A stretch of 64,000 bases of DNA from Burkholderiales bacterium (GCA_030684405.1 JAUXYA010000032.1:108992-172991), one strand, 5' to 3'. Shown: positions 12,946 through 58,898, counted from the first letter of the stretch. Numbers and translations are program-made. Notes: a model not told the origin generated them from the sequence alone.

Positions 12946-12998
12946 GACAGATGCTCCAGCAAATATTCGTGTAATCCGAACGCGTAAATTCGTTCCCG

Positions 12999-14483: not shown

Positions 14484-14712
14484 AGCGGTTATGTTCCTGG
14501 GCGGATCGACAGTCGATCAGTCTATTGAAGTCTAACTCGCGTACTTATGTCTATTTTCTTGTTTGGTATTACCAAAGCGCATAACTGTTGGACAAAGGCC
14601 ATGTTCAACTGGAATCGCGCAAGTCCAGATATGAACTGACAACGCTCGTTGAATTACATTCCTCCAGCCAAGCACGATGTGTGCCTATAAATTGCCTCAT
14701 GAAAGTGAGCCT

Positions 14713-15771: not shown

Positions 15772-16694
15772 CCTGTAAGTACTGTGTTTGAGGCCGGTTT
15801 TCTGGAAATAAAATCCCAGAGTTTCCTGGGCAGTGAACGTTGATTATCAACCGAATAGTAAATGCGAATATCGATTGGCTCGCACCATTCCTCGGACCCG
15901 GCAAGCGCAAGCCGCCCTTCGGCAAGCTCTTTCGACACGACAGCCTTAGGTAACCATGCAACACCTCGACCGGCCATGACCATTGCCTTGGCCGCCTCCA
16001 GCAGATCAGTCTCAAAACACCGGCGTAAATGGGCGGGCGTGGGTGCTCGGGGCAAAATGAGTTCGACTATTTGTCCCATGAACAGACTTTGCGGGTAAGC
16101 CACGAACGGAATTGGGCGCGTTTTGCTCCCAGGTAGCCGCATGCCCGCACTGACCTGACTATCCGCCGAAATGACGGGCACCACCATGTCACGCCTCAAG
16201 GTCAAATACGGATAACGATTTTCTGGCAGAACAATTGGAACTTGTGGATGATGATAAACGACGGCGAAATCACAGGTGTGACCTTCCACCAAGGAACGTA
16301 GCCCTTCATAGGTATTAGTGGCGGTTACCCTTGGCACTAACGGGCCATATTCCGCCGCAACCTCAAAAATCCAGTCCGACAGAAAATTCAGTACAAGCGC
16401 ATGTGGTGCCGAGATGTGAATCAATCCGTCCGATGCGGTTTCTCCCCGCATCAAGGTGCGGGTGGAATATGTCTTGGCAACCAGATCTTTGGCAAAGTCA
16501 CGAAACATTCTTCCCGCGGGTGTGAGAGAGATTGGGTATGAACTGCGATTGATCAGATCAACCCCCAGCCACTCCTCAAGGGAACGGATGCGTCGGCTCA
16601 ATGCAGGTTGCGTAACACAACGCGCCTCGGCTGTGCGCGAAAAGTTGAGGGTGTCCGCCAAACTCAGAAAGTCCTCAAGCCACTTGAGTTCCAT
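15768..16694 (-). CDS. LysR-family transcriptional regulator
   Basis: ATG at 16694 gives MELKWLEDFLSLADTLNFSRTAEARCVTQPALSRRIRSLEEWLG, a classic LTTR helix-turn-helix. It is divergent from the Bug/hydratase/CoA-transferase genes. Confidence 0.9.
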   Translation of the reverse strand: MELKWLEDFLSLADTLNFSRTAEARCVTQPALSRRIRSLEEWLGVDLINRSSYPISLTPAGRMFRDFAKDLVAKTYSTRTLMRGETASDGLIHISAPHALVLNFLSDWIFEVAAEYGPLVPRVTATNTYEGLRSLVEGHTCDFAVVYHHPQVPIVLPENRYPYLTLRRDMVVPVISADSQVSAGMRLPGSKTRPIPFVAYPQSLFMGQIVELILPRAPTPAHLRRCFETDLLEAAKAMVMAGRGVAWLPKAVVSKELAEGRLALAGSEEWCEPIDIRIYYSVDNQRSLPRKLWDFISRKPASNTVLTG

Positions 16695-16969
16695 GTACGC
16701 ATCCTCATTGGAGATTGAGCGCTCATACAGCCACTGAAGCGAGAACCATCCGCTGCTGAGTTTATGCCACGCCTGCGGAGCCCCCATCGGTTAGGTAACC
16801 AGGGGCGATTCAGTAAATGTAAATTAGCTTAGAATGAAAACCGCGTCGGACAAAATTTATTAAAAAAATGCCAATGCACCAATTGAAGCCAAAGCAGATC
16901 ATCACTGCATTTTCTGTTTATAGCTTTACTGGCGGTTACAAACAAACAAATAACTTGGAGGAGTCTGCC

Positions 16970-17950
16970 ATGAAGTGGTCTGGTCGTGCAGCAGCATTTT
17001 GGTTTCCTTTTCTCGCATTTTCGCCATCACTCGTGCTGGCACAAGCTGCGGGTGAGTATCCCGAGAAGTCCATTCGATTCATCGTGCCTTTCCCACCTGG
17101 CGCCGCAAATGACACGCTCGCACGAGCGGTAGGTCAGAGGCTCTCTGACCGCTGGCAACGTCCTGTGATAGTAGATAATCGCGGTGGAGCCGGTGGCGTT
17201 CTTGGTACTACCATTGCCGCAAGAGCACTTCCTGACGGTTACACCATCGTACTAGTTCCAGCTACGCATGCAATCAATGTATCTCTATACAGCAAGCCCC
17301 CTTTTGACGCAGTGAAGGACTTTGCACCAATCTCGCTCATTGCAACAGGGGCTTACATGTTGGTTGCCAATCCGTCCCTGCCAGCAAAATCTGTAAAAGA
17401 ATTAATTAGTCTCGCGAAAAGCAAGCCGGGACAGCTGACTTACGGATCTGCTGGAACGGGAAACGCGACACATCTGGTTGGTGAATTGATGAGTAGTATG
17501 GCCGGGATAAAGTTGAATCATGTTCCTTATAAAGGCGTTGGGCCTGCGCTTGCCGAAGTAATGGGGGGGCAAGTAAATATGATGTTTGGAAGTATTTCGG
17601 CAACCAATCCCCAAGTAAAAGCCGGGAGAGTTATGGCGCTCGCAGTAACCAGCATCAAGCGGTCCCTCGCCGCCCCCAATGTACCGACACTGGATGAGTC
17701 GGGCTTGACCGGCTTTGATGCAGTGGGGTGGTGGGGAGTGTTGGCGCCAGCAAAGACTTCGCCAGTGATTATTCGCAAGATAAATGCTGAAATTGAGGCT
17801 ATCACTCAAAATGCCGAAATGCGACAGTGGTTGCAGGGTCAGGGCTTTGAGCCCGCGAGTGGTAACCCACAACAGTTCGCAAGGTTTCTCAATGATGAAA
17901 TCAAAAAATGGGGCGGGGTGGTGAAGGCTTCGGGAGCGAAACTGGATTAA
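16970..17950 (+). CDS. Bug-family (TctC-like) periplasmic substrate-binding protein
   Basis: ATG at 16970 after GGAGGA. Signal peptide ending LAQA, then YPEKSIRFIVPFPPGAANDTLARAVGQRL. Confidence 0.9.
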   Translation: MKWSGRAAAFWFPFLAFSPSLVLAQAAGEYPEKSIRFIVPFPPGAANDTLARAVGQRLSDRWQRPVIVDNRGGAGGVLGTTIAARALPDGYTIVLVPATHAINVSLYSKPPFDAVKDFAPISLIATGAYMLVANPSLPAKSVKELISLAKSKPGQLTYGSAGTGNATHLVGELMSSMAGIKLNHVPYKGVGPALAEVMGGQVNMMFGSISATNPQVKAGRVMALAVTSIKRSLAAPNVPTLDESGLTGFDAVGWWGVLAPAKTSPVIIRKINAEIEAITQNAEMRQWLQGQGFEPASGNPQQFARFLNDEIKKWGGVVKASGAKLD

Positions 17951-18037
17951 TTGTGGTGTCGATGTGGTGCTTGCATATTTACGTCGATGCTTGGAACGGC
18001 CGAATTTTCAGAGAAATTTGAGTTTTTAGGAGAGGAA

Positions 18038-18811
18038 ATGTCAATAGATTGTGTTGTCAAGAATCACATCGCCCTGATCACCATTAATCGCACAGAGCGC
18101 TTAAATGCAATGGATGCGGAGCACTATAGGGCACTATCGGAAGCCTGGATTAGAGTAAGAGACGATAACGATATTCGCGTTGCAATTGTCACGGGCGCGG
18201 GGGAAAAGTCATTCAGCACAGGCGCGGATCTTAAAAGCTTCGCAAATAAGCCAGCGCCGCTTTCTGAGATGTGGCTTACGCAGCGCGATCAATTACTTAA
18301 CCGGGGATTGGAAGTCTGGAAGCCAGTTATCGCGGCTGTTAACGGGTACTGTCTTGGTGGCGGGATGACCTTGCTGCTGGGAACAGATATACGCCTTGCA
18401 GCCCCGCACGCAACATTCGGGCTGTCGGAAGTTAAGCGTGGATTTATTGCGGGTAATGGGGGGACGCAGCGGATATTAAAGCAACTACCTCATGCAATAG
18501 CGATGGAAATACTGCTGACAGGTGATGCGATGAACGCTGAGACTGCAGAGCGATGGGGGTTGATTAATCGCGTTGTGCCGTCAGAAAAATTGCTGGATGA
18601 AGCATTTGCTTTCGCAAAGCGTATTGCGGCCAATGGCCCGCTTGCTGTGCAGGCCGCCAAGGAACTGGCCATCCGAGGGGAAGACATGGATTTGGCAACT
18701 GGTTTGCGCGTGGAACAAATGTGGAATCGGATGCTGCGCTTTAGTGACGATGCTAAAGAGGGGCCGCTGGCGTTTGCGGAGAGGCGACCTGCTCGGTTTA
18801 AAGGGGAATAG
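18038..18811 (+). CDS. enoyl-CoA hydratase/isomerase (crotonase) family protein
   Basis: ATG at 18038 after AGGAGAGG. IALITINRTERLNAMD, VTGAGEKSFSTGADL and AAVNGYCLGGGMTLLLGTDIRLA are crotonase-fold motifs. Confidence 0.9.
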   Translation: MSIDCVVKNHIALITINRTERLNAMDAEHYRALSEAWIRVRDDNDIRVAIVTGAGEKSFSTGADLKSFANKPAPLSEMWLTQRDQLLNRGLEVWKPVIAAVNGYCLGGGMTLLLGTDIRLAAPHATFGLSEVKRGFIAGNGGTQRILKQLPHAIAMEILLTGDAMNAETAERWGLINRVVPSEKLLDEAFAFAKRIAANGPLAVQAAKELAIRGEDMDLATGLRVEQMWNRMLRFSDDAKEGPLAFAERRPARFKGE

Positions 18812-18813
18812 CG

Positions 18814-20034
18814 TTGAAGATAAGTTTGGCGCGGCAGCCTTTGCAGGGAGTAACTGTTCTTGATCTCGGTCAGATATACAACGGGCCCTATGCCACTTTT
18901 CTGATGGCGATGGCTGGCGCACGCATCATCAAGATTGAGCCCCTCGAGGGGGAGTCGTTGCGTCAACGAACTCTGATCGGTGGTGCGGCGTTGCCGTTTG
19001 CGATGCTTAACTCGAATAAGCAGGCGGTTACGTTGAATCTCAAGACCAAGCGCGGTCGTGAGCTTCTTTTTGACATGGCTCGCCGCGCAGATGTCTTGCT
19101 GGAGAACTTCCTGCCGGGGAAGCTGGAAAAACTAGGGATTAGTTATGAAGTATTACAGGAGCTAAACCCACGCTTAATTTTCGCGTCGAGTTCAGGCTTC
19201 GGTAGTACTGGCCCCTATAAAGAATACCCTGCAATGGACATTACCATTCAGGCGATGTCGGGCGCGATGAGTGTCACGGGATTCCCTGATGGCCCCCCTA
19301 CCAAAGTTGGCCCTGCACTTTGCGATTTCTCGTGTGGAGTGCATCTTTATGGGGCAGTCATGACAGCGCTTTATGAAAGAGAGAAAACCGGTCAAGGGCA
19401 AAAGGTAGAAGTGGCAATGCTTGATGCCATTTATTTCTCGCTTGCATCGAGTCTCGGCTTGTATTTCAGTTCAGGGAATTATGGTGGGCCTATCAACTTC
19501 CCGCAGCGAACAGGCAATAGCCATAGCGGAAAGGCTGCCGCCCCCTACAGTGTTTATGAGGCGAGCGATGGGCATATCACCATACTCTGCACCAACAACA
19601 AGCACTGGGTTTCCTTGGTTAAAGCGATGGGGCGGGAAGAATTGGCGACCGATCCACGATTTGATACGCCGAAGAAGCGTGCTACCAACAGTGCTCAAGT
19701 GGATGAGATTGTGGGGACGTTTGCCGCACGGTACAAGCGTGAAGAGTTATTCAAGTTGCTCCTTAAGCATCAAGTCCCCTGTGCTCCGGTAAGGGATTTG
19801 GCAGAAATAACCAACGATCCCCATTTGCATGAGCGAGGTATGCTGGAGTGGATGGATCATCCGAAGTATGGCCGTATCGCGGCAGCTCGTAGCCCGCTTC
19901 GGTTCGGAGACCAGGCGCTGAATAAGCTTGTCCCGAGTGCGGAATTAGGGGCGCAAAATCAAGAGATTTTCGGGGACTGGCTGGGGCTCCCTAAGGAGGA
20001 GCTGGAAAAATTGCAAAAAGAAGGCGTTATCTGA
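18814..20034 (+). CDS. family III CoA-transferase (CaiB/BaiF family)
   Basis: 406 aa with a TTG start 3 nt after the hydratase stop. LQGVTVLDLGQIYNGPYATFLMAMAGARIIKIEP. Confidence 0.9.
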   Translation: MKISLARQPLQGVTVLDLGQIYNGPYATFLMAMAGARIIKIEPLEGESLRQRTLIGGAALPFAMLNSNKQAVTLNLKTKRGRELLFDMARRADVLLENFLPGKLEKLGISYEVLQELNPRLIFASSSGFGSTGPYKEYPAMDITIQAMSGAMSVTGFPDGPPTKVGPALCDFSCGVHLYGAVMTALYEREKTGQGQKVEVAMLDAIYFSLASSLGLYFSSGNYGGPINFPQRTGNSHSGKAAAPYSVYEASDGHITILCTNNKHWVSLVKAMGREELATDPRFDTPKKRATNSAQVDEIVGTFAARYKREELFKLLLKHQVPCAPVRDLAEITNDPHLHERGMLEWMDHPKYGRIAAARSPLRFGDQALNKLVPSAELGAQNQEIFGDWLGLPKEELEKLQKEGVI

Positions 20035-20071
20035 GGCGTGAGAAAAGCGAAATGAAGAAATTATGATGTTA

Positions 20072-20947
20072 TTAAGAGGGGCGGCTTAATTCAATAATTT
20101 CGTGAGCAGTCTTCACCATCGCTTCATCCACCATATATCCTTTGTAAGTCACAGCAGCAATGCCTTGCTTACGCGCATCGTCCATCACCTGAATCAACCC
20201 CTCGTAGTAAGCAATCTCGTCGGCAGAAGGAGTGAAGACGCGATTCACGATGGGGACATGGGAGGGATGCATGACCGTTTGCCCTCTGAACCCCAACTGG
20301 CGATTCCAACGAGCGTCCCGCTCCAGCCCTTCAACATCTTTGATATTCCACCACGAGCTGATCGTCGGGTATTGGATGCCAGCCGCGCGGCATTCCAACA
20401 CTGTCCTCGACCTAATAAAAAGCGTCTCCATTCCTTCCTTTGACCACTGGTATCCAATCGCCCGCGCCGCGTCCCCACCAGGACCTGCCGCCAGACTTAC
20501 CCGTGTCACTCTTGGGCAAGACGTCGCAATATCGTAAACATTTCGCATCCCCTTCGCCGTCTCGCAGTTGAAAGGGGTTTCGATGGTGCCTGGCGTGATA
20601 CCCATGCGCATTTCGAGATGCGTAAGCAACACATCCAACTCGCGCATATCATCGACATTTTCGACCTTAGGGATCGTGACCGCGGTTAACTCGGGGCACA
20701 TGATGCCTTCGAGGTCATCGAGCGTGAGACCGGTAACGAAAGGGTTGATGCGAACCGTTACGGCCTGTCCACGCACCTTCAGTGCAGCAACAGCCGCCTT
20801 CACCAAGGGGCGGGCAGCGACCTTCTCCTGATCGGGCACTGAGTCTTCGAGGTCAAGAATGAGGCAGTCAGCGCCATAACCCGCCGCTTTCTCCATCCAA
20901 GCCGCACGGTTGCCGGGAACATACAACATTGAACGATAGGGTTTCAT
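20072..20947 (-). CDS. HpcH/HpaI aldolase / citrate-lyase beta-subunit-like (CitE-like) acyl-CoA lyase
   Basis: ATG at 20947 gives MKPYRSMLYVPGNRAAWMEKAAGYGADCLILDLEDSVP, the CitE/malyl-CoA lyase N-terminal signature. Confidence 0.85.
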   Translation of the reverse strand: MKPYRSMLYVPGNRAAWMEKAAGYGADCLILDLEDSVPDQEKVAARPLVKAAVAALKVRGQAVTVRINPFVTGLTLDDLEGIMCPELTAVTIPKVENVDDMRELDVLLTHLEMRMGITPGTIETPFNCETAKGMRNVYDIATSCPRVTRVSLAAGPGGDAARAIGYQWSKEGMETLFIRSRTVLECRAAGIQYPTISSWWNIKDVEGLERDARWNRQLGFRGQTVMHPSHVPIVNRVFTPSADEIAYYEGLIQVMDDARKQGIAAVTYKGYMVDEAMVKTAHEIIELSRPS

Positions 20948-21305
20948 AGAAGGACTTACCCTGAGTGACAAGCTTTTTCTGAACCAAAAATGACGAAACT
21001 ATCTTTTGATAGTAATGGCGGGAACTCTACTGAATGAATTTGGTAACCACCTGATCGATATTCAAGATGGGGTATATGCAGTTGCCCCGGGCTTTATACC
21101 GCGTTCTTTAAATTGTCCCACCTGCCGACGAAGAAAAGGTGTTGATGGTCCATGACTATTCCGGCAGCGCATGCTGGACTCCAGCAGCGACGCTCTCTCA
21201 TTTTGTGGAATGGCTTATAGGATAACGCAAAAATTGTGACGGCAAGCCGTGACCGGTGGCCTGTGGTCCGTAACGCAGCGCCGAGCGGCGCTCACCCGCC
21301 TATTG

Positions 21306-22277
21306 CTATTGCGGCTGAATTCCGATTTTTTTGAACAGTGGAATCCATTTGCCGCGCTCAGCCTTGATATAGGCTGTAAATTCCTCCGGCGTGCTGCCGA
21401 TGGGGTCGATGCCCAGCGCGGACAGGCGGTCTTTGACTTCGGCAATAAAAATCGCCTTTTTGGTTTCCTGTTGCAGCCGGTTGACCACCGGACGCGGCGT
21501 GCCGGCGCGCACGGCCAAGCCGTTCCACGAAGTGGCGTCATAACCGGCAACGCCGCCTTCGGCGATGGACGGCAGATCCGGCAGCAACGCAGAGCGTTTG
21601 GCGGTGGTGATGCCGAGCGCACGCAGCTTGCCGGATCTGACATGGCCGATAGAGGATGCGATCTGGTCGAAGGCAATCTGCACCTGGCCGCTCAACAGGT
21701 CGGTCATCATCTGACCACTGCCCTTGTACGGGACGTGCACGATGTCGATGCCGGCCAGCGCCTTGAACAATTCCGCAGTGACATGCGTGGCGCCGCCCAC
21801 GCCCGAGCTACCGAAGGAATATTTTCCCGGCTGCGCTTTGGCCAGCGTCACCAGTTCCCTGACTGACTTGGCGGGCAGCGATGCCGGAACAGTCAGGATC
21901 AGCGGCAGCGAACCGATCTGCGTCACCGGTGCAAGATCCTTTTCTGCACTGTAAGGCAGCTTCGCATAGAGGTAATGATTGAATGCCATTACGCCAGTTG
22001 ATGCCATTAACAGGGTGTAACCATCCGGATTGGATTTGGCGACGACGTCGGCGCCGATGTTGCCACCGGCACCACTGCGGTTATCAACAATCACCTGCTG
22101 ACCGAGGGCTGTCGTGAGTTTTTCGCCGACGATGCGCGCGGTCACATCGGTCGAGCCGCCGGGCGCGAAACCGACGACCAGGCGTAGCGGCCTGACCGGA
22201 TATTCCTGTGCGGCAAAAGCCGAGCCTATACAGGCTGCGCAAACACCGAGCGCCAGTGCGCGGATCATACTGTTCAT
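21306..22277 (-). CDS. Bug-family (TctC-like) periplasmic substrate-binding protein
   Basis: 323 aa. Signal peptide ending AFAAQ, then YPVRPLRLVVGFAPGGSTDVTARIVGEKL. RBS AGGAGG. Confidence 0.9.
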   Translation of the reverse strand: MNSMIRALALGVCAACIGSAFAAQEYPVRPLRLVVGFAPGGSTDVTARIVGEKLTTALGQQVIVDNRSGAGGNIGADVVAKSNPDGYTLLMASTGVMAFNHYLYAKLPYSAEKDLAPVTQIGSLPLILTVPASLPAKSVRELVTLAKAQPGKYSFGSSGVGGATHVTAELFKALAGIDIVHVPYKGSGQMMTDLLSGQVQIAFDQIASSIGHVRSGKLRALGITTAKRSALLPDLPSIAEGGVAGYDATSWNGLAVRAGTPRPVVNRLQQETKKAIFIAEVKDRLSALGIDPIGSTPEEFTAYIKAERGKWIPLFKKIGIQPQ

Positions 22278-22445
22278 GCTCTCTACCTCCTTGAAGTGCA
22301 GTCAGCATACCCCACTAAGTCGAAGGGTACTGCAAGTCGAACTCCGCCGGACGTATTGCGTATAGGAATTTGAAATCACTTTTTCCCACTCGGCGACTAT
22401 ATCGCCGGCCCGACAGATTCCGCAGGATAACTTGTGATGGGGTAA

Positions 22446-22521
<76 letters not shown>

Positions 22522-48750: not shown

Positions 48751-48973
48751 CAGTCCTCCATGGTGGGCAATGATTCAAGGTAATGATGGAAGTATAAGCA
48801 GATCCTTAGCAAACGATCTGGCAAATTCACAAAATATGCAATAAAAACAATGGTATGTATTATTTTCCGAAGATCGACGCCGACACCTCTGCGGGAACGG
48901 TTTGTTTTCTGCGCGGACATGCTTCAGCTACAATCTGCGCTCATTTTCCAGAGCTGACTGCCAAGGAGTTTTC

Positions 48974-49282
48974 ATGAAACTGGTTTATGCCGCATTCGTC
49001 ATTACGGGTGTCCTGTCCGCTGGCACTGCTGCTGCCACGGAAAAACTTGCACTGTCCAGTGGCTGCATGACCTGTCATACGATGGATCGCAAGGCCATCG
49101 GCCCTGGCTACAAGGAAATTGCCGCCAAGTATCGCAACGAAAAAGGCGCGGAAGCGAAAATGATCCAGAAGGTTAAGTCCGGCGGATCCGGTGTCTGGGG
49201 ACCGGCGCCGATGCCACCCAATCCGCATGTGAAGGACGATGACATCAAGGCCATCGTGCAGTGGATCCTCTCGCTGAAATAG
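48974..49282 (+). CDS. class I c-type cytochrome (c551/c552 family)
   Basis: ATG at 48974 after AAGGAG. Signal peptide, heme motif CMTCH, then GPGYKEIAAKY...GGSGVWGPAPMPPN. Confidence 0.9.
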   Translation: MKLVYAAFVITGVLSAGTAAATEKLALSSGCMTCHTMDRKAIGPGYKEIAAKYRNEKGAEAKMIQKVKSGGSGVWGPAPMPPNPHVKDDDIKAIVQWILSLK

Positions 49283-49301
49283 CGGGATTTCGTTCATTCG
49301 C

Positions 49302-49331
49302 AAAAAAAGCCGGCACCTGCCGGCTTTTTTT
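49302..49331. terminator. bidirectional rho-independent terminator
   Basis: AAAAAAAGCCGGCA-CC-TGCCGGCTTTTTTT, located after the cytochrome c gene. Confidence 0.85.
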
Positions 49332-49482
49332 GCGCGCTTCCCTGAACTTAAATTGACAGCCCCTTGCACGCTCCGGATAATCGGGAAATCCCTTTCAGTA
49401 ACAATGGGTTAAATACTGAACCTGCGATCTTCCGCACACTGCGGAGCGATTGCCCCGACAGACCTTCGGACTGGAGCCCTCC

Positions 49483-50706
49483 ATGCAGATGCACAAGACA
49501 CGCCACACCGTTGTAGCCCTCATTGCCGCAGTCCTGCTCACCGCCTGTGGCAAGGAGGATCCGCCCGCACCGAAAGTAGAAGCGCCCAAGCCACCGGAAG
49601 TGCTTACGGTGAAAATCGGCTCGGCCTCGCCGCTGACCGGACCGCAGGCGCATATCGGCATCGACATCCGCAACGGCGTGCAACTGGCTATCGAGGATCT
49701 CAATGCGCAGGGCGTGGAAATCGGCGGCAAAAAAGTGAAGTTCGAAATGGTCGCCGAGGATGACGAAGCCAATCCGACCAAGGCCACCACGGTGGCGCAG
49801 AAGCTCGTGGATGCGAAAGTCGCGGCCGTGGTGGGGCACTTCAACTCTGGTGCGTCGATTCCCGCCTCCAAGGTCTATGCCGATGCCGGCATACCGCAGA
49901 TTTCGCCTTCTTCGACCAACCCCGACTACACGCTGAAGGGTTTCAAGACCACCTTCCGGGTCGTTGCCCATGACGGCCAGCAGGGCCCGACGCTGGCGCG
50001 CTTCGCGATGAACAAGCTCAAGGCGAAGAACATCGCGGTAATCGACGACAGCACGGCGTACGGCCAGGGCCTTGCCGACAACTTCGAGGCAACGGTGAAA
50101 GCCGCAGGCGGCAAAATCGTCGCCCGCGAGCACACTACCGACAAGGACACCGACTTCAAGGCAATCCTGACCAAGATCAAGGGCCGCAAGCCCGACCTGA
50201 TCATGTTCGGCGGCATCGATCCGCAGGCCGGACCTATGGCCAAGCAGATGAAGGATCTCGGCATCAAGGCCGCGTTCATCGGCGGCGACGGCATGCAGAC
50301 CCCCAACTTCATCAAGCTCGCGGGCAACGCAGCCGAAGGCGCGATGGCTTCGATCCCGGGACTGCCCAAGGACCAGATGCCGGGCGGCCAGGCCTTCCTC
50401 GACAAATACAAGGCGAAGTTCAACCAGGAGGTGGAACTGTTCGCGCCGATGGGCTATGACGCGGTGTTCGTGCTGGTCGAGGCCATGAAACGCGCCGGCA
50501 GCGCCGAGCCGGAAAAATTCCTTCCCGAGATCGGCAAGACCGATCATCAGGGCATCATCGGCCCGATTGCCTTCGACGAGAAAGGCGACCTCAGGAACGG
50601 CCCGATCACCATTTACGTGGTCAAGGGCGGAAAGTGGGAGCCGCTGGAAGTGGTGAAGCCCGAAGCTGCCGCCGGAGCGCCGGCATCCGCATCCGAGATC
50701 AAATAA
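49483..50706 (+). CDS. LIV-type (HAAT family) ABC transporter substrate-binding lipoprotein
   Basis: ATG at 49483 after GGAG. Lipobox LLTACG. IGSASPLTGPQAHIGIDIRNGVQLAIEDLN is typical of Leu/Ile/Val-binding-protein-like receptors. Confidence 0.88.
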   Translation: MQMHKTRHTVVALIAAVLLTACGKEDPPAPKVEAPKPPEVLTVKIGSASPLTGPQAHIGIDIRNGVQLAIEDLNAQGVEIGGKKVKFEMVAEDDEANPTKATTVAQKLVDAKVAAVVGHFNSGASIPASKVYADAGIPQISPSSTNPDYTLKGFKTTFRVVAHDGQQGPTLARFAMNKLKAKNIAVIDDSTAYGQGLADNFEATVKAAGGKIVAREHTTDKDTDFKAILTKIKGRKPDLIMFGGIDPQAGPMAKQMKDLGIKAAFIGGDGMQTPNFIKLAGNAAEGAMASIPGLPKDQMPGGQAFLDKYKAKFNQEVELFAPMGYDAVFVLVEAMKRAGSAEPEKFLPEIGKTDHQGIIGPIAFDEKGDLRNGPITIYVVKGGKWEPLEVVKPEAAAGAPASASEIK

Positions 50707-50723
50707 ACCGCGACTACGGACAC

Positions 50724-50747
50724 AACGGCACCCTCCAGGGTGCCGTT
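50724..50747 (+). promoter_or_regulatory. intercistronic stem-loop between binding-protein and permease genes
   Basis: AACGGCACCC-TCCA-GGGTGCCGTT is a perfect 10-bp stem with no U-tract. It probably acts as an mRNA stabiliser or partial attenuator giving an excess of binding protein. Confidence 0.5.
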
Positions 50748-50760
50748 GGCGTCTCTGCAG

Positions 50761-51678
50761 ATGGAAATTTTCGCCCAACAAATCGTCAACGGCTTGGTGC
50801 TGGGCAGCATCTATGCACTGGTTGCGCTCGGCTACACGATGGTCTACGGCATTCTCGGCCTGATCAATTTCGCTCACGGCGACATCACTATGATCGGCGC
50901 ACTGGTGTCCCTGACCCTGCTGCAGCTGCTCGCCGCCGCAGGGCTGCCGGTGCCCCTGGTGCTGGGTTTGGCCGCCTGCGGCGCGATGCTGGTCTGCGCC
51001 GTGCTTGGCCTGTCGATTGAGCGCGCCGCCTACCGCCCGCTGCGCCGCGCGCCGCGGCTGGCGCCCTTGATCACGGCGATCGGGGTATCGATACTGCTGC
51101 AGTATTCGGCAGCGCTGGTCTGGGGCAAGCAGTACATCTCCCTGCCCCCGATCATCGAGCCCCTGCGGTTCACGCTGTTCGGGGCGCAGATGACCTCGCT
51201 GCAGGCGACGATCTTCCTGCTCGCCTGCACGATCATGGGCGGGCTGCTGTGGTTCATCAAGGCAAGCCGCATGGGGCGCGCGATGCGCGCGACCGAGCAG
51301 AATCCCGACGTCGCCGGCCTGATGGGAGTCAACACCAACACGGTGATCGCCTTCACCTTTCTGCTCGGCTCGGCAATCGGCGCCATCGCCGGCCTGATGG
51401 TCGTGCTCTATTACGGCATTGGCCACTACTTCATGGGCTTCATGCTCGGCCTCAAGGCCTTCACTGCGGCGGTGCTCGGCGGCATCGGCAACGTCGGCGG
51501 CGCCGTGCTCGGCGGGCTGCTGCTCGGCGTCATCGAGAGCCTCGCTTCCGGCTACATCGGCGACCTCACCGGCGGCCTGCTGGGCAGCAACTACCGCGAC
51601 ATTTTCGCCTTTCTGGTGCTGGTGCTGGTGCTAAAGCCCTCGGGCCTGATGGGCCGATCCGGCGGGGACCGCGCATGA
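50761..51678 (+). CDS. livH: branched-chain amino acid ABC transporter permease (LivH-like)
   Basis: ATG at 50761. MEIFAQQIVNGLVLGSIYALVALGYTMVYGILGLINFAHGD is the LivH N-terminal signature. Confidence 0.9.
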   Translation: MEIFAQQIVNGLVLGSIYALVALGYTMVYGILGLINFAHGDITMIGALVSLTLLQLLAAAGLPVPLVLGLAACGAMLVCAVLGLSIERAAYRPLRRAPRLAPLITAIGVSILLQYSAALVWGKQYISLPPIIEPLRFTLFGAQMTSLQATIFLLACTIMGGLLWFIKASRMGRAMRATEQNPDVAGLMGVNTNTVIAFTFLLGSAIGAIAGLMVVLYYGIGHYFMGFMLGLKAFTAAVLGGIGNVGGAVLGGLLLGVIESLASGYIGDLTGGLLGSNYRDIFAFLVLVLVLKPSGLMGRSGGDRA

Positions 51679-52769
51679 CTGCCGACCATCCCGCACTGCG
51701 CTGGACGGCCTGGCTCGCGCTCGCGCTGCTGCTGCTCGCGGCACCCTTCCTGATTGAGGCCCTGCTCGGCCGCGCCTGGGTGCGTATCGCAGACGTCGCG
51801 TTGCTGTTCATCATGCTCGCCCTCGGTCTCAACATCGTCGTCGGCTTCGCCGGCCTGCTCGACCTCGGCTACATCGCCTTCTTCGCGGTCGGCGCCTACA
51901 GCTACGCGCTGCTCGCCTCGCCGCAGCTCGCGGTGCACTGGCCCTTTTACGTGGTACTGCCGATAGGCGCGGCAGTGGCGGCGGTGTTCGGCATCCTGCT
52001 CGGTGCACCGACGCTGCGGCTGCGCGGCGACTACCTCGCCATTGTCACGCTCGGCTTCGGCGAAATCATCCGCGTGTTCCTCAACAACCTTAACCGCCCG
52101 TTCAATATCACCAACGGGCCGCAGGGCATCACGCTGATCGACCCCTTGCAGATCGGCAGCTTTTCGCTGGCGCAGACGCACACCATTGCCGGCCTCACGT
52201 TCACGCCAGTGCACAACTATTATTTTGTTTTCCTGGTCGGTGCACTGTTGTCGATCGCGATCTCCCTGCGCCTGGAGAACTCCCGCACCGGCCGCGCCTG
52301 GGTGGCAATCCGCGACGATGAGCTCGCGGCGTCGGCGATGGGCATCAACACCCGTAACATGAAACTGCTGGCCTTCGCCATGGGTGCGACATTCGGCGGC
52401 GTCGCCGGTGGCCTGTTTGCCTCCTTCCAGGGCTTCATCAGTCCGGAAAGCTTCCACCTGATCGATTCCATCATGGTGCTGTGCATGGTCGTCCTCGGCG
52501 GCATGGGCAACGTTTACGGCGTCGTGCTCGGCGCTGTGCTGCTGACCGCGCTGCCGGAAGCCCTGCGTTATGTCGGACCCCTGCAGCAGCGCTGGTTTGG
52601 GGAGGTGTTCGTTGATCCCTCGGACCTGCGCATGCTGCTGTTCGGCCTCGCACTGGTGCTGATGATGCTGTTCCGCCCGTCGGGCATCCTGCCGGCGCGG
52701 CGCAGCAACCCGGTTCGCAGTCCGGCCTTGTCTGCCGCCGCAGGAGGTAAAACACATGGCGCCGGCTGA
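51675..52769 (+). CDS. livM: branched-chain amino acid ABC transporter permease (LivM-like)
   Basis: The ATG at 51675 overlaps the livH stop (ATGA). LALGLNIVVGFAGLLDLGYIAFFAVGAY. Confidence 0.9.
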   Translation: MTADHPALRWTAWLALALLLLAAPFLIEALLGRAWVRIADVALLFIMLALGLNIVVGFAGLLDLGYIAFFAVGAYSYALLASPQLAVHWPFYVVLPIGAAVAAVFGILLGAPTLRLRGDYLAIVTLGFGEIIRVFLNNLNRPFNITNGPQGITLIDPLQIGSFSLAQTHTIAGLTFTPVHNYYFVFLVGALLSIAISLRLENSRTGRAWVAIRDDELAASAMGINTRNMKLLAFAMGATFGGVAGGLFASFQGFISPESFHLIDSIMVLCMVVLGGMGNVYGVVLGAVLLTALPEALRYVGPLQQRWFGEVFVDPSDLRMLLFGLALVLMMLFRPSGILPARRSNPVRSPALSAAAGGKTHGAG

Positions 52770-53535
52770 CGCGCCGCTGCTCTGTGCCCGCGGCATCTGC
52801 AAGCGTTTCGGCGGACTGCGTGCGCTGAACGCGGTCTCGATCAGCGTCTTTCGTGGCGAGATTTTCGGGCTGATCGGTCCCAACGGTGCGGGCAAAACCA
52901 CTCTGTTCAACGTTATCACCGGCCTTTACGCGGCCGACTCCGGCACGGTGACCTTCGATGGCGAAGCGGTTGGCGGACTCAAGCCCCATCGCATCGCGCA
53001 GCATGGGATTGCCCGCACTTTCCAGAACATCCGTTTGTTCGGTAGCATGAATGCGCTGGAGAATGTGATGGTCGGGCGCCACCTGCGCACGCGCGCAGGG
53101 GTGCTTGGCGCCGTGCTGCGAACAAAGGCGACGCGCGAGGAAGAAATCGCGATTACGCAGCGCGCTCTGGAACTGCTGGATTACTGCGGGCTTTCGGTGC
53201 GCGCCGGCGTGCTCGCACGCGACCTGCCCTATGGCGACCAGCGACGGCTTGAAATCGCCCGCGCGCTGGCCACCGAACCGAAGCTGCTCGCGCTCGACGA
53301 GCCCGCCGCCGGCATGAACGCCACCGAAACCGCCGGCCTGCGCGGACTTCTCGAGCGCATCGTCGCCGATGGCGTGACCCTGCTGCTGATCGAACACGAC
53401 ATGAAGCTGGTGATGGGACTGTCGCACCGTGTTGCCGTGCTTGATTACGGCGAGAAAATCGCCGAAGGCGAGCCGGCCGAAGTGCAGCGCGATCCCAAGG
53501 TCATCGAAGCCTACCTGGGTGGCGCCATTGCCTGA
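52756..53535 (+). CDS. livG: branched-chain amino acid ABC transporter ATP-binding protein (LivG-like)
   Basis: 259 aa. Walker A GPNGAGKTT, the LivG-specific insertion, LPYGDQRRLEIARAL, and Walker B LLALDEP. Confidence 0.92.
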   Translation: MAPADAPLLCARGICKRFGGLRALNAVSISVFRGEIFGLIGPNGAGKTTLFNVITGLYAADSGTVTFDGEAVGGLKPHRIAQHGIARTFQNIRLFGSMNALENVMVGRHLRTRAGVLGAVLRTKATREEEIAITQRALELLDYCGLSVRAGVLARDLPYGDQRRLEIARALATEPKLLALDEPAAGMNATETAGLRGLLERIVADGVTLLLIEHDMKLVMGLSHRVAVLDYGEKIAEGEPAEVQRDPKVIEAYLGGAIA

Positions 53536-54244
53536 GGCCCTGCTCAGCGTGCGCGGCCTGGAAGTTGCCTACGGCGGCATCCGCGCGGTCAAGGGCATCG
53601 ACCTTGAGGTGCGCGGCGGCGAACTGGTGGCGCTGATCGGCGCCAATGGTGCCGGCAAGACCAGCACCCTGAAGGCGCTCTCCGGCCTGCTGCGGCCCGC
53701 AGCCGGCCGTATCGACTATGACGGCGCCGAAGTCACGGGCAAACCGGCGTATCATCTGGTGCGGCGCGGTCTGGCGATGGTGCCCGAGGGACGCGGCGTG
53801 TTTCCAAGGCTGACGGTGGCAGAAAACCTCGCAATGGGTGCCTATATCCGCAAAGACAAGACTGCAATCGCCCGCGACCTGCAGCGCGCCTACGCGCTGT
53901 TTCCGCGGCTCGCAGAGCGCAGGAACCAGCTTGCGGGCACGCTGTCCGGGGGGGAGCAGCAGATGCTGGCGATGGCGCGGGCGCTGATGTGCAAGCCGCG
54001 GTTGCTGCTGCTCGACGAGCCGAGCATGGGACTGGCGCCGCTGATGGTGCAGAGGATTTTCGAGACAGTGCGGACCGTGGCCGCCGAAGGGGTGACAATG
54101 CTCCTGGTCGAACAGAATGCGAAGCTGGCTCTCGAAACCTGCCATCGTGGCTATGTCATGGAAAGTGGCAACGTCGTGCTAGCCGACGACGCGGGAAATC
54201 TTCTGCGCAACCCACAAGTGAGGCAAGCGTACCTTGGAGAATGA
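53519..54244 (+). CDS. livF: branched-chain amino acid ABC transporter ATP-binding protein (LivF-like)
   Basis: GTG at 53519 (alternative TTG at 53528) overlaps the livG end. LLSVRGLEVAYGGIRAVKGIDLEV, GANGAGKTS, LSGGEQQMLAMARAL. Confidence 0.9.
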   Translation: MAPLPEALLSVRGLEVAYGGIRAVKGIDLEVRGGELVALIGANGAGKTSTLKALSGLLRPAAGRIDYDGAEVTGKPAYHLVRRGLAMVPEGRGVFPRLTVAENLAMGAYIRKDKTAIARDLQRAYALFPRLAERRNQLAGTLSGGEQQMLAMARALMCKPRLLLLDEPSMGLAPLMVQRIFETVRTVAAEGVTMLLVEQNAKLALETCHRGYVMESGNVVLADDAGNLLRNPQVRQAYLGE

Positions 54245-56072
54245 GTTCAACACGCCCCGGTGGCAGCGTCTGCTACCGCCGCGCAGGGCACGCCTGCCGC
54301 TGATGGCATTGGTGGCCGTCGGACTGGTCGCGCTGCTCGGCTTTCTCTACCTCAAGAGCCAGGGCGTCGATTACCAACGCCAGGGTGAAATCCTCGGCTA
54401 TCTTCGCGAGCTGCGCGAGATCGATGCACGCTGGGACTTCGAGGTTCTGCGCGCACGCACCGAGGGCAAGCCTGGCAAGACCCAGCCCGGCGATGACCGC
54501 GGAGCGCGGGCCTCGGAAATACTCAAAAGACTGCAACAGGCCGCAGGAGAGGCTCAGGGCGAAGCGCTGATGCGGGAGTTACCGGCACTGCAGCTGGCCT
54601 TCGGCCAGAAGGCGGAACTGCTCGGGCGCTATCGCGCGGCCCAGCAGACCATGGCCGAGGCGCTGGCAAGGCTGGTGGAATTCGATGGCGAAATGGCGGG
54701 GCTCGTACGCGGCGCATGGGCCGCATATCCGCAGCGCGACCGGCTGGTCGCGGTGGAAAGCACCTCGGCGCTGCTGTTCGCGCATGTCATGCGCTACACA
54801 GCGGACCCGTCCGAGGCGCAGCGCAAGAATGTCGAGACCTTCGCCGCCGATCTGCGCAAGTCGGCAGACGACATGCCGCCAGCGCTGCGCGACGGCCTCG
54901 CGCGCATGGACACTTCCGTGCAACAGATCCTTGAGGCCAAGCCGGTGGAGGACGGGTTGTTCCTCAAAATCTCGATTTCCTCCGCCGGGCCGCGCATCAA
55001 CAGCCTGACCGACACCTTCAGCCGGGAAGCGGCGGACATCGAGTCCGACAGTGCGCGCTACCGCATATACCTGATTGCCTACGCCGGCGCGCTGCTGATC
55101 CTGATCGGCTGGCTGCTGTCAAAGCTTGCCGTCAGCTACCGGCTGCTCAACGAAGCCAACCGCGTGCTCGAGTCGCGGGTGGAGGAGCGCACGCGAGAAC
55201 TGTCTGACGCACTGCATCAGCTCAAGGAGTCCGAAGCGCAGCTGATCCAGACGGAGAAGATGTCGTCGCTCGGACAGATGGTTGCCGGCATCGCCCATGA
55301 GATCAATACGCCGCTGGCCTACGTCAAGAACAGTCTCGGCTCGGTCGTTGGCAAGCTGCCGGAAGTGAAAGAACTGGTGGTCGAGACCAACAAGCTGCTG
55401 CGGCTGATGGAAGACCCCAGTCCGAGCCCGGAGCGCCTGCAGGCCAAGTACGCTGCAGTGCGCGGGCTCGTCAACCATTTCGCCGAGCAGCAGGCGCTCG
55501 CCGAGCTCGGGCAGCTGGCCAAGGACGGACTGTACGGGATCGACCAGATTTCGGAGATCGTTCTCAACCTGAAGAATTTCAGCCGGCTGGATCGCAGCAA
55601 GATCTCAAGTTTCAACATCAACGAAGGCGTGGAAAGCGCGCTAATCCTCGCCAAGCACGAACTCAAACACCTGAAGGTCACAAAAACCCTCGGTGACATT
55701 CCGCCCATCACCTGCTCGCCGTCACAGCTGAACCAAGTCTTCCTGAACCTGATCAACAACGCGGCACAGGCAATCGAGTCGAGCAGCGGCGAAATCACGG
55801 TTAATACACGGACCGAGGGCGCCGACCACGTAGCGGTGGAAATCTCTGACAACGGCAAGGGTATCCCGCCGGAGATCATGTCGAAGATCTTCGACCCGTT
55901 TTTCACGACCAAGGCGGTCGGAAAAGGAACCGGGCTCGGCCTGTCGATCTCCTACAAAATTATCGAGCAGCACGGTGGCAGGATCAGCGTTGATTCCATC
56001 GTGGGCCAGGGCACCCGATTCACCATCGTGCTGCCGCTGACGCCGCCGGCCACGCTGGACGATCTTTCATGA
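54234..56072 (+). CDS. membrane sensor histidine kinase with large helical periplasmic domain
   Basis: TTG at 54234 overlaps the livF stop; an alternative ATG is at 54303. Two TM helices flank a periplasmic region of about 250 aa. HisKA H-box is [14 protein letters not shown]. HATPase motifs are [16 protein letters not shown] and [12 protein letters not shown]. Confidence 0.9.
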
Positions 56073-57982
56073 CCGTCAATTACCCCAGGAAAATCGGCAA
56101 GTACGAGGTGCAGGGCATCCTCGGCCGTGGGGGTATGGGCGTGGTCTACAAGGCCTTCGACCCTGCAATCCACCGCCAGGTCGCCATCAAGACCATCACC
56201 AAGTCGACGCTGGATCCCTCCGAGATCCAGTATGCCGTGGCGCGCTTCCGTCACGAGGCGCAGGCCGTCGGCCGCCTGACGCATCCGCGTATCGCCGCCA
56301 TCTTCGATTACGGCGAGGACGAGGACCTCGCCTACATCGTCATGGAGCTGGTCAACGGTAAATCGTTGTACGAACACCTGCAGAACAAGGCGAAATTTGA
56401 TCTCGCGGAAATCGGTGAAATCATCCGCCAGCTGCTCGACGGCCTGGGTTATGCGCATGCTCAGGGGGTCGTCCACCGCGACATCAAGCCGTCAAACATC
56501 CTGATCAACGACGACGGCCGCATCAAGATCAGCGATTTCGGCATCGCCCATCTGGACTCCTCGTCGCTGACCCAGGTCGGCGAGATCATGGGCTCGCCGG
56601 GCTACATGTCGCCGGAGCAGTTCACCGGAGAGGAGCCCGATGCGCGCACCGACATCTACTCGGCCGGCGTCATCGCCTACGAGCTGCTGACCGGGCGCAA
56701 GCCCTTCACCGGCAGCAACGTGGAAATCATGCGTCAGGTGATCGGGGAGCAGCCCGACAATCCCTCGAAATTCAATCCGCGCATATCGGTGCAGCTCGAC
56801 TGGGCGACGCACAAGGCGCTGGCCAAGAAGCGCGAAGACCGCTTCCAGACCGCGCGCGAGTTCGCGCTCGGTTTCGTCCAGGGCATCGCGGCAAGCCTGC
56901 GCACCGCGAAATCTGCTGCTGAAGAGGAGTCCCGCGAGGTGCCAACCCAGCGCCTCGACCCGAAGCTGGTCTCAGCTGCAAGGGTCATTTCCGGGATGCA
57001 GGCCTCGCAGGCATCTGCTTCCGCTGCCACGGCAGTACCTGCGGTAGCGCCGACTTTCGATACCGGCGGCAAAAAGGCCAAGCTGCTGTTCGTCGACGAC
57101 GAGGAGCGCATCCTCAATGCGCTGCGCTCGGTTTTCCGCAACCAGTACAACGTGTTCACCGCCAGCAGCGGCCCGGAAGCCATGGAATTCATGAAGCGCT
57201 TCCATCCGCATGTGGTCATCAGCGACCAGCGCATGCCGGAGATGACGGGTGTCGAATTCCTGCGCCAGGTGCGGGATTTCGCGCCGCACACGGTGCGGAT
57301 ACTGCTCACCGGCTATTCCGACCTCGCCTCCATCGTCGGCTCGATCAACGACGGCGAGGTTTTCCGTTTTATCAGCAAGCCGTGGAACAACACCGAAATC
57401 CAGAAAACGATAGACGAGGCGGCGGCCATTGCGATCGAGCTGACCGACATGGCAACCTCCCCGGCAATCGTGCCAGACAAGGTCAGCAGCGGCATCCTCG
57501 TGCTCAATCCCGACCAGAGCGTGTTCAGGGCCGTCAACGAACTGATGGGCAGCGTCTGTCCGGTGATCGATGCCCCTGACATGGACCGCGCGCTGGCGAT
57601 TCTCGCCGACCGCGAAATCGCGGTCATCATCGCCGACATCCGCAGCAGCGACCAGAAGGCACTGGCGGCTTTCAAGCTGCTGAAGCAGGATCATCCCGAG
57701 ATACTCGCCATCCTTACCACCGACGCTTCGGACTCGGAAGTGGTCATCGACCTGATCAACCAGGCGCAGGTATTCCGTTTCCTCAGCAAGCCGCTTAACC
57801 TGAAGCTGCTGCAGCAGCATGTACACGCAGCGCTGGCGCGTTATCAGGCCTTCCGCAAGACGCCGAAGCTGCTGAAGCAGCATCGCGTCGCGGCAGCCCG
57901 CGAACCGGAGGGCGGATCCTCGATGCTCGACCAGCTGCGCGAACGCATCCGCTCGGTCAAATCCTGGTTTGGCGTCGGCTGA
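56069..57982 (+). CDS. Hanks-type Ser/Thr protein kinase fused to two C-terminal receiver (REC) domains
   Basis: The ATG overlaps the HK stop (ATGA). Kinase motifs: GRGGMGVVYKA, VAIK, HRDIKPSN, DFGIA, SPGYMSPE. REC1 is at about 57077..57433 (FVDDEE, VISDQRMP, LLTGYSD, ISKPW). REC2 is at about 57491..57844 (LVLNPDQ, IIADIRS, ILTTDAS, LSKPL). Confidence 0.9.
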   Translation: MTVNYPRKIGKYEVQGILGRGGMGVVYKAFDPAIHRQVAIKTITKSTLDPSEIQYAVARFRHEAQAVGRLTHPRIAAIFDYGEDEDLAYIVMELVNGKSLYEHLQNKAKFDLAEIGEIIRQLLDGLGYAHAQGVVHRDIKPSNILINDDGRIKISDFGIAHLDSSSLTQVGEIMGSPGYMSPEQFTGEEPDARTDIYSAGVIAYELLTGRKPFTGSNVEIMRQVIGEQPDNPSKFNPRISVQLDWATHKALAKKREDRFQTAREFALGFVQGIAASLRTAKSAAEEESREVPTQRLDPKLVSAARVISGMQASQASASAATAVPAVAPTFDTGGKKAKLLFVDDEERILNALRSVFRNQYNVFTASSGPEAMEFMKRFHPHVVISDQRMPEMTGVEFLRQVRDFAPHTVRILLTGYSDLASIVGSINDGEVFRFISKPWNNTEIQKTIDEAAAIAIELTDMATSPAIVPDKVSSGILVLNPDQSVFRAVNELMGSVCPVIDAPDMDRALAILADREIAVIIADIRSSDQKALAAFKLLKQDHPEILAILTTDASDSEVVIDLINQAQVFRFLSKPLNLKLLQQHVHAALARYQAFRKTPKLLKQHRVAAAREPEGGSSMLDQLRERIRSVKSWFGVG

Positions 57983-58001
57983 AGCCGCAGCCCCCCGCAG
58001 T

Positions 58002-58898
58002 TCAAACCCAGTCCTTCTCCACCAGAAAATCGCTATAGAGCTGCGCTTCGGGCGTACCGGGCTGCGGCGCCCAATCGTAGCGCCAGTGCACGACCGGGGG
58101 CAGTGACATCAGGATCGATTCGGTGCGCCCGCCCGACTGCAGGCCGAACAGAGTACCGCGATCGTAGACCAGGTTGAATTCGACATAGCGGCCGCGGCGG
58201 TAAGCCTGGAAATCGCGTTCACGCTCGCCGTAGGCCAGGTTGCGGCGACGCTCGACGATCGGGACATAGGCCGGCAGGAAATGGTCGCCGACGCTGCGCG
58301 TCAGTGCGAAGCAACTGTCGAAATCCGGGGTTCCGAGGTCGTCGAAGAATATGCCACCCACGCCACGCGGCTCCTTGCGGTGCTTCAGGAAAAAATAGCG
58401 GTCACACCAGGCTTTGAACTGCGAATGGTATTCCGCGCCGAAGGGTGTCAGCGCGTCGCGGCAGCTGCGGTGGAAGTGCACGGCGTCATCCTCAAAGCCG
58501 TAGTACGGCGTAAGGTCCATGCCACCGCCGAACCACCACACCGGCGCCGCACCGGTCTTTTCCGCAACGAAACAGCGCACGTTCATATGCACTGTGGGCA
58601 CGTAGGGATTACGCGGATGCAGCACCAGCGACACACCCATCGCCTGGAAGGAGCGGCCGGCGAGTTCCGGCCGGGCCGCGGATGCCGAGGGCGGCAGGTT
58701 GTCGCCGAACACATGTGAGAAACCAACGCCACCGCGCTCGAACAACGCGCCGTTCTCGATCAGCCGGGTGATGCCGCCGCCGCCCTGCGGTCGCTGCCAC
58801 TCATCGCGGATAAAGCTGCCGCCGTCGAGCGCGGCGAGGCCGTCAACGATCGACGACTGCAGGCCGGTGAGGTAAGTCTTGACTGCGGCGATGTCCAT
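58002..58898 (-). CDS. hemF: oxygen-dependent coproporphyrinogen III oxidase
   Basis: 298 aa. [46 protein letters not shown]. Confidence 0.96.

Follow-up and report, generated by a model that had tools for sequence, protein, structure and literature searches.

The window analysed here is a 64,000-nucleotide stretch, read on one strand, from a Burkholderiales bacterium (GCA_030684405.1 JAUXYA010000032.1:108992-172991), and the system in question is a run of seven plus-strand genes at 49483-57982 in which the genes of an ATP-binding cassette (ABC) importer of the LIV type continue into those of a sensor histidine kinase (HK) and of a response regulator with a Hanks-type Ser/Thr kinase (STK) as its output. 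The features are collected in Table 1; coordinates are those of the whole window, and L-numbers denote the loci of relatives. The array lies between a terminator with a promoter-like site on one side and a convergent hemF on the other. An earlier sequence-only reading had described seven same-strand genes at minimal or negative spacing, a terminator before the array and no DNA-binding response regulator nearby, and all three descriptions held: every junction it named was found again when the sequence was re-read, the terminator hairpin is stable, and the sole helix-turn-helix gene near the locus is fis-like and lies downstream. The predicted terminator is bidirectional in shape and closes the upstream cytochrome c gene. 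In a consensus scan of 48800-58400, the other promoter-like site beside the putative promoter was a weak 9/12 match within livM, and at the livF/HK junction such scans, which are weak and uninformative, found no internal promoter or terminator in the window, L007, L013 or L014. We infer co-transcription, the seven genes very probably forming one transcription unit in this lineage. The block was also considered as an independently mobile unit, an idea that we rejected as the flanking hemF, purD, purH and cytochrome c genes move along with it.

Table 1. Features of the importer and kinase array in the window, with junction spacings in gene order and the kinase-less DAHL genes of relatives
Feature	Position	Strand	Details
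Intrinsic terminator	49299-49334	none	A-run, GCCGGC stem, T-run; -27.6 kcal/mol, z = -6.2, 0/200 shuffles as stable
Sigma-70-like promoter, putative	49353-49381	+	TTGACA-17-GATAAT; 11/12 consensus matches; ~100 nt 5' of binding-protein gene
Substrate-binding lipoprotein (SBP), LIV/HAAT family	49483-50706	+	PF13458 (Peripla_BP_6), E = 1e-66
SBP gene/livH junction			+54 nt, includes hairpin 50724-50747
Intercistronic hairpin	50724-50747	+	AACGGCACC-CUCCAG-GGUGCCGUU; 11 bp, z = -4.3; without U tract
livH-type permease	50761-51678	+	ATG start (GTG 50740 alternative); PF02653 (BPD_transp_2), E = 4e-46
livH/livM junction			-4 nt; ATGA overlap, read in sequence
livM-type permease	51675-52769	+	PF02653 (BPD_transp_2), E = 1e-46
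livM/livG junction			-14 nt; 14-nt overlap, GGAGG in front, read in sequence
livG-type ATPase	52756-53535	+	PF00005 and PF12399 (BCA_ABC_TP_C tail)
livG/livF junction			-8 nt; 8-nt overlap, or 17 nt if GTG 53519 start
livF-type ATPase	53528 (TTG) or 53519 (GTG) to 54244	+	PF00005
livF/HK junction			-11 nt; 11-nt overlap, HK start TTG 54234
Sensor histidine kinase (HK), 612 aa	54234-56072	+	TTG start; Pfam DAHL E = 1e-21, HATPase_c E = 2e-30, HisKA E = 7e-06
HK transmembrane helix 1 (TM1)	54294-54353
HK periplasmic DAHL domain	54366-55064
HK transmembrane helix 2 (TM2)	55059-55127
HK H-box His355	55296-55298
HK ATPase domain	55719-56042
HK/STK junction	56069-56072		-4 nt; ATGA
Response regulator with Hanks Ser/Thr kinase output, 637 aa	56069-57982	+	Pfam Pkinase E = 1e-55; Response_reg, two stretches
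STK kinase domain	56069-56920
STK disordered linker	56921-57070		~50 residues (285-334)
First receiver (REC1)	57080-57445		D343, D344, D386, T414, K437
Second receiver (REC2)	57491-57859		N479-P480 instead of acidic pair; D523, K574 retained
hemF	58002-58898	convergent	directly past STK gene
DAHL-only genes of relatives	L088 5549-6562; L090 8001-9020; L091 8001-8936; L092 5905-6897		last gene of LIV operon, directly before hemF

The importer is complete, with a substrate-binding protein (SBP), two permeases and two ABC ATPases in the order livJ/K-HMGF, all five with strong Pfam matches. Their top NCBIfam matches are Liv models, all under the equivalog cut-off (250 of 477, 254 of 379 for LivH, 307 of 366, 280 of 362 and 267 of 441 bits), and because no LIV protein reaches the Escherichia coli equivalog cut-offs the assignment stops at the LIV/HAAT family. 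The start of livH is most likely ATG 50761, since the alternative GTG sits in the intercistronic hairpin and the gene of the near-identical contig L001 is called from ATG. The SBP has a lipobox, LLTAC (Cys22), followed by a Pro/Lys-rich linker ahead of the Peripla_BP_6 domain, features also kept in orthologues. Among solved structures Atu2422 (3IP5, E = 3e-62) is nearest, followed by LivK and LivJ; aligned to these three, the SBP retains the Atu2422 motif GHFNSG and the equivalents of the amino-acid contact positions T145, Y193 and D269. Atu2422 binds Ala, Val, Pro and gamma-aminobutyric acid, that is, short-chain amino acids (PMC3656012), and the substrates of the SBP are probably small or aliphatic amino acids.

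The TTG start of the HK is preceded by GAGG 10 nt upstream; the alternative start, ATG 54303, lacks a Shine-Dalgarno sequence and would drop a positively charged stretch ahead of TM1. The H, N, G1, F and G2 boxes of the kinase were all located (e.g. AGIAH(355) and GTGLGLS). T2SS_HK was tried as a named family and not adopted, being the best match yet under the cut-off. Searching the PDB by sequence with the DAHL part gave no match, and we hence turned to a model and a fold search. The AlphaFold2 model of residues 1-310 (predicted local distance difference test score 91.3) is all-helical, with two transmembrane helices around six periplasmic helices, and its DAHL part has among its ten best PDB fold matches only the ligand-binding domain of McpS (2YFA and 2YFB, with organic acids bound) or the sensor domain of TorS, TorS-TorT complexes included. 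Matches to the TorS sensor domain and its TorT complexes had a probability of 1.00 and a target-normalised TM-score of at most 0.57, and the fit to McpS was equal or better. The large helical periplasmic domain likened to TorS in the sequence-only reading is thus predicted to fold like the TorS sensor domain; as the matches are both McpS and TorS, the modelled fold backs the TorS analogy and direct ligand sensing by the kinase equally.

In the STK the Hanks motifs are complete, comprising GRGGMGVV (residues 19-26), VAIK (K41), HRDIKPSN (136-143), DFG (156-158) and SPE (181-183), and location of the receiver motifs places D386 at the phospho-acceptor position of REC1, as had been proposed. Among 16 family members (36-88% identity), D343, D344, D386, T414 and K437 of REC1 are invariant or nearly so, and K41, HRD and DFG are kept in most. 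Two distant members of the alignment, P0131 and P0168, have HAD and HGA in place of HRD and GFG in place of DFG with a still canonical REC1, and may be pseudokinase versions of the regulator. REC2 is probably an adaptor or pseudo-receiver, since its acidic pair is gone. In the predicted structure the kinase, REC1 and REC2 are each confident, and the arrangement between them is unusable because of a predicted TM-score of 0.49 and the disordered linker. Both the REC-REC part and the stand-alone REC-REC proteins of relatives have as their top NCBIfam model NF053512 (REC-REC-HD-GYP, 'NosR family'), matched in two stretches with 211-223 bits; this fits a reusable two-receiver input module, and 'NosR family' was rejected as a named family for the receivers, the 400-bit cut-off not being reached. 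A tblastn search of the window for FHA or PP2C partners with approximate GarA and PstP queries, a weak test, gave no match. An identical STK protein is present in GCA_030680675.1.

To survey the pair, one genome per species was scanned and the window proteins were then used in tblastn searches. More than 120 clusters of STK-REC-REC proteins at 90% identity are at least 78% identical to the window protein, all from metagenome-assembled genomes (MAGs) of Burkholderiales/Betaproteobacteria, and the full architecture was represented by about a dozen clusters at 50% identity. All full-length loci (at least 15) have an HK core immediately before STK-REC-REC, and in Beta- and Gammaproteobacteria and Chlorobiales about 40 loci have it directly upstream of a stand-alone REC-REC protein (312-326 aa), the hosts of this form including Solimonas, Nevskia, Alkalilimnicola, Rhodocyclaceae, Ramlibacter, Chlorobiales and others. 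Adjacency of HK and REC-REC was found in essentially every locus with sequence among about 60 relatives, and the kinases beside stand-alone REC-REC also have DAHL domains where checked. Because adjacency held throughout the relatives examined, we regard the HK and the STK-receiver protein as a cognate pair, with REC-REC without a kinase as the older receiver form. On sequence grounds, DAHL-HK with REC-REC is the ancestral pair, to which a Hanks kinase was added N-terminally in a betaproteobacterial subfamily. In two MAGs (L012 1260-8967 and L013 4197-11920) a tandem HK-STK-HK-STK array is found downstream of the LIV operon.

In literature searches, DAHL-domain kinases and receiver-to-Hanks-kinase regulators were the subject of no paper, and experimental work on the family was not found either. 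Receiver domains are never mentioned in a broad review of bacterial Hanks kinases (PMC6213207), and a review of two-component systems from 2025 considers just the reverse route, in which an STK acts on a response regulator (PMC12471899). As a two-component variant, the HK/STK-REC-REC pair is conserved and unstudied, frequent in databases and uncharacterised as far as we found. The sequence-only reading had called the wiring of the locus unusual, which holds for the receiver-to-Hanks-kinase output that both reviews lack, but not for the use of a binding protein as input, sensor kinases driven by binding proteins and the GlnH-GlnX-PknG system being already known.

Pairs linked to LIV genes are found in the clade of the window (L001, L084-L086, L093 and L095) and at L004, L007, L012-L015, L087 and L089, L014 being the cultivable Betaproteobacteria bacterium GR16-43 (CP019169), in which the cluster is complete; close relatives (78-86% identity) have the whole neighbourhood in common and say little about coupling. 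The livF-HK junction measures -11, -11, -4 and -4 nt in four lineages and contains no terminator in others. In L007 and L014, 4-5.5 kb of other DNA has been inserted between the STK gene and hemF, and none between livF and the HK gene. Judged from rough neighbour-joining trees, the linkage is probably ancestral to the STK-fused family, since LIV-linked members occur in most branches, including L089 within an otherwise unlinked clade. The seven-gene order suggested as a mark of coupling is thus kept in relatives, within one Burkholderiales subclade and at one site, but elsewhere the pair and the LIV operon each stand alone. At L087 (5251-9404) a DDE transposase replaces the LIV genes upstream of livF with the livF-HK junction intact, and at L089 (8001-9761) the kinase gene is split, by frameshift or assembly error, into a 453-aa DAHL/HisKA open reading frame and a 110-aa HATPase one. 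At L008, an unlinked locus, an alanine dehydrogenase/PNT-family gene (12399-13538) directly follows the STK gene; this neighbour could be meaningful given the small amino acids predicted for the SBP, or a coincidence.

A further variant is provided by four loci that carry cytochrome c, SBP, livHMGF, a gene for a TM-DAHL-TM protein (311-339 aa) and hemF, with neither kinase core nor STK. The four proteins form one clade in the tree, sister to L004 and inside the LIV-linked group, and have in common a C-terminal tail derived from the start of the kinase signalling helix; in two of the four loci the gene overlaps livF by 11 nt. The ratio of non-synonymous to synonymous substitution rates (dN/dS) between L088 and L092 is 0.31, within the 0.23-0.38 obtained for the DAHL part of similarly diverged intact kinases. 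In at least part of the DAHL-only clade, therefore, purifying selection appears to maintain a kinase-less membrane protein alongside the LIV operon, and this suggestive retention is the best evidence here for a tie between DAHL and the importer. By analogy, the DAHL-only proteins resemble GlnX in architecture.

Pairing, motifs and conservation make a route from His355 via D386 to the Hanks kinase very likely, and we consider the identity of the parts, together with the wiring from HK through REC1 to STK, highly probable. A periplasmic signal would act on the DAHL domain, the HK would autophosphorylate on His355 and the phosphoryl group would move to D386 of REC1; the REC1-REC2 module would then rearrange or dimerise, by analogy with PleD, and the Hanks kinase so activated would phosphorylate cytoplasmic targets on Ser/Thr. 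The signal itself would most likely be amino-acid availability, conveyed by the liganded SBP docking on DAHL, as TorT does on TorS or PstS on CtpL. Gene content, junctions, domain motifs, the pairing of HK and regulator, the fold and the phyletic distribution are what the analysis shows; we infer the phosphotransfer to D386, the mode of activation, the ligand and, most of all, the SBP-DAHL contact. The reading as a whole, in which a LIV importer operon is continuous with a self-contained two-component pair that takes amino-acid input through the SBP, is tentative and falls just short of being probable. Docking of the liganded SBP on the DAHL domain is doubtful when taken by itself, and a full three-tier relay of transport receptor, His-Asp step and Hanks kinase, in which DAHL would have a second, kinase-independent job with the LIV system, is rather unlikely. 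If the three-tier relay were true, that second job would account for the retention of DAHL after loss of the kinase core and the STK.

Several observations weigh against amino-acid input through the SBP. Throughout one clade (L005, L006, L008-L011) and at L018, HK-STK is a two-gene unit unlinked to LIV genes, preceded by a gene of opposite orientation and set among unrelated ones (rpe, MltA, alanine dehydrogenase, TonB, HAD, Fpg), and the ancestral DAHL-HK/REC-REC pair is never beside LIV genes. Every LIV-linked locus retains hemF-purD-purH downstream and often cytochrome c upstream, and because LIV adjacency is confined to this one chromosomal site (cytochrome c ... hemF-purD-purH) the linkage may be inherited synteny from a single insertion. 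On the transporter side, sampled by a metagenome scan with an SBP alignment followed by tblastn and a DAHL hidden Markov model on the loci, about 23 orthologous LIV operons extended far enough downstream, and a DAHL gene was found in two of them, those of the nearest relatives only; livF abuts hemF directly at L108, and unrelated opposite-strand genes lie downstream of livF at L098 and L129. At L012 and L013 an opposite-strand DedA/YqaA-like gene (L013 3611-4048) splits livF from the first kinase gene. Site synteny, sensor-free LIV operons and this separation together argue that both units are autonomous and that the fused operon is lineage-specific. Nor is the lipoprotein tether of the SBP a signalling-specific trait, an idea that we rejected on finding lipoboxes in 32 of 76 orthologues, LIV-only loci among them. 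McpS, the closest fold match of the DAHL domain, binds its ligands directly without a binding protein. The DAHL-only loci were found by a search with the DAHL part and then from the encoding contigs, and so carry an ascertainment bias; constraint among them is uneven, L090 and L091 evolving faster (43% identity, dN/dS about 0.5). Since a DAHL query was used and complete deletions are common, the DAHL-only evidence is suggestive, not decisive.

In another reading, importer and pair have no functional link, HK-STK having been inserted once between livF and hemF and passively inherited, with the spacing collapsed by deletion and the DAHL-only genes left as deletion remnants. The invariable synteny, the autonomy of both units elsewhere, the opposite-strand gene in L012 and L013 and the fast evolution of L090 and L091 all speak for such a history, which we nevertheless regard as distinctly unlikely: at least four diverged lineages have overlapping or near-abutting junctions and the others show no terminator, the foreign DNA in L007 and L014 entered before hemF and not between livF and HK, and the DAHL-only proteins have a common tail and, for L088 and L092, a low dN/dS. 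Alternatively, the LIV genes may be merely co-expressed and the SBP have no part in signalling, the DAHL domain being the direct receptor of a small periplasmic ligand, in the way that malate or succinate is bound by the HBM domain of McpS. That the top fold matches are McpS domains holding organic acids agrees with direct sensing, as does the occurrence of HK-STK and of the older HK/REC-REC pairs in many genomes without an adjacent binding protein; in the unlinked clade we looked for another binding protein beside HK-STK and found none, the lipoprotein at L009 being MltA. The charged DAHL positions K126, E153, E239 and R254, moreover, are conserved at 90% or more in LIV-linked and unlinked members alike. 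Direct sensing is nonetheless unlikely on balance, as a kinase-less DAHL protein under purifying selection is hard to explain if the domain serves the kinase only, and the fold match to TorS is almost as good as that to McpS. The direction of control might also be reversed, with the STK phosphorylating LivG, LivF or another transport component and so tuning uptake. All the genes lie in one operon, and mycobacterial STKs phosphorylate the ABC transporter Rv1747 (substrate table, PMC6213207). Against this, LivG and LivF lack FHA and any other phospho-recognition domain, many genomes have HK-STK but no LIV genes beside it, and the DAHL-only variant is kinase-free and still with the LIV operon, leaving reverse wiring very improbable. 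A functional tie of any kind between the DAHL module and the LIV system seems slightly favoured; the transporter is ordinary, and its coupling to the pair is plausible and lineage-restricted.

Known sensors driven by binding proteins include TorT-TorS, LuxP-LuxQ, PstS-CtpL, BctC-BctE and the Peripla_BP_6 protein BasB with BasT, and in GlnH-GlnX-PknG a binding protein stimulates a Ser/Thr kinase, the one such case to have been characterised (PMC8050422). With TorT-TorS the present system has in common a periplasmic domain of two stacked four-helix bundles, as judged from the match of the DAHL model to TorS, and a binding-protein gene beside the kinase gene, although sequence identity between TorS and this HK is only 11-14%. 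TorT, however, is a Peripla_BP_1 protein dedicated to signalling without a transporter, whereas here the SBP belongs to a full ABC importer, and TorS is a hybrid kinase that feeds the DNA-binding TorR, whereas here a plain kinase feeds a receiver-Hanks-kinase protein. The likeness to GlnH-GlnX-PknG is one of logic only, an amino-acid binding protein acting through membrane four-helix bundles on a soluble Hanks Ser/Thr kinase; the families differ (SBP_bac_3 versus Peripla_BP_6, 4HB_MCP_1 versus DAHL, and PknG with TPR and rubredoxin parts versus STK-REC-REC), and GlnX signals by protein contact whereas here a His-Asp phosphotransfer is proposed to be interposed. The Pseudomonas HBM chemoreceptors McpS and CtpL are similar in that McpS is the best fold match and CtpL is driven by the PstS of an ABC transporter, but both signal to CheA and McpS binds its ligands directly. 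PleD-type REC-REC' and REC-REC'-HD-GYP proteins likewise place a canonical receiver before a degenerate adaptor receiver and have an enzymatic output, which there is a C-terminal GGDEF or HD-GYP domain and here an N-terminal Hanks kinase on a disordered linker, so that dimerisation of the present module would be an analogy.

In the yeast relay Sln1-Ypd1-Ssk1, acting on the MAP kinase kinase kinases (MAPKKKs) Ssk2/22, a receiver phosphorylated by a histidine kinase controls a Ser/Thr kinase; receiver and kinase are separate proteins there and a histidine phosphotransfer (HPt) step is included, whereas here receiver and kinase are one polypeptide. The usual account of bacterial Hanks kinases and two-component systems is one of parallel pathways, with cross-talk from the Ser/Thr kinase to the response regulator. 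In the present family the signal would run from histidine kinase to Ser/Thr kinase, since the receiver is built into the Hanks kinase and always paired with one HK. If the three-tier relay were true, the system would be a bacterial counterpart of both GlnH-GlnX-PknG and the eukaryotic Sln1-Ssk1-MAPKKK logic. Were the SBP its input, it would also tie nutrient uptake directly to post-translational metabolic control, as PknG does in actinobacteria, and would offer a tractable model with natural variants at hand (full system, relocated pair, DAHL-only and LIV-only).

The hairpin between the SBP gene and livH is itself conserved. A stem CGGCACC/GGTGCCG, usually inside AA...TT, occurs exactly once per locus and always at the SBP gene/livH junction in 32 loci whose SBPs are 54-100% identical, with differing loops; besides that of the window, copies lie at L004 4550-4568, L007 4394-4413, L014 3761-3780, L088 1897-1914, L109 11440-11457, L144 11425-11442 and others. 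No such conserved stem would be expected by chance within the window, and the conservation covers the letters of the stem, beyond pairing alone. The sequence-only reading had reported a U-less stem-loop after the SBP gene, and the hairpin is indeed real and has no U tract here, but the U-less form is a local derivative: most relatives have a T-run 3' of the hairpin, which has been lost in the window clade. Most copies look like a partial terminator or attenuator. A dispersed repetitive extragenic palindromic element or a known RNA family was considered and rejected, the hairpin being present once per locus at a fixed junction with no Rfam match.

Elsewhere in the window, the G+C content of about 12000-22400 is 51-55% against about 63%, and this block abuts tRNA-Phe (22446-22521, minus strand). 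It encodes three TctC/Bug-type binding proteins, a sulfatase, a pyridoxal phosphate enzyme, a LysR regulator, an enoyl-CoA hydratase, a family III CoA-transferase and an HpcH/citrate-lyase-like aldolase, and may be an acquired catabolic island for an itaconate-like dicarboxylate.

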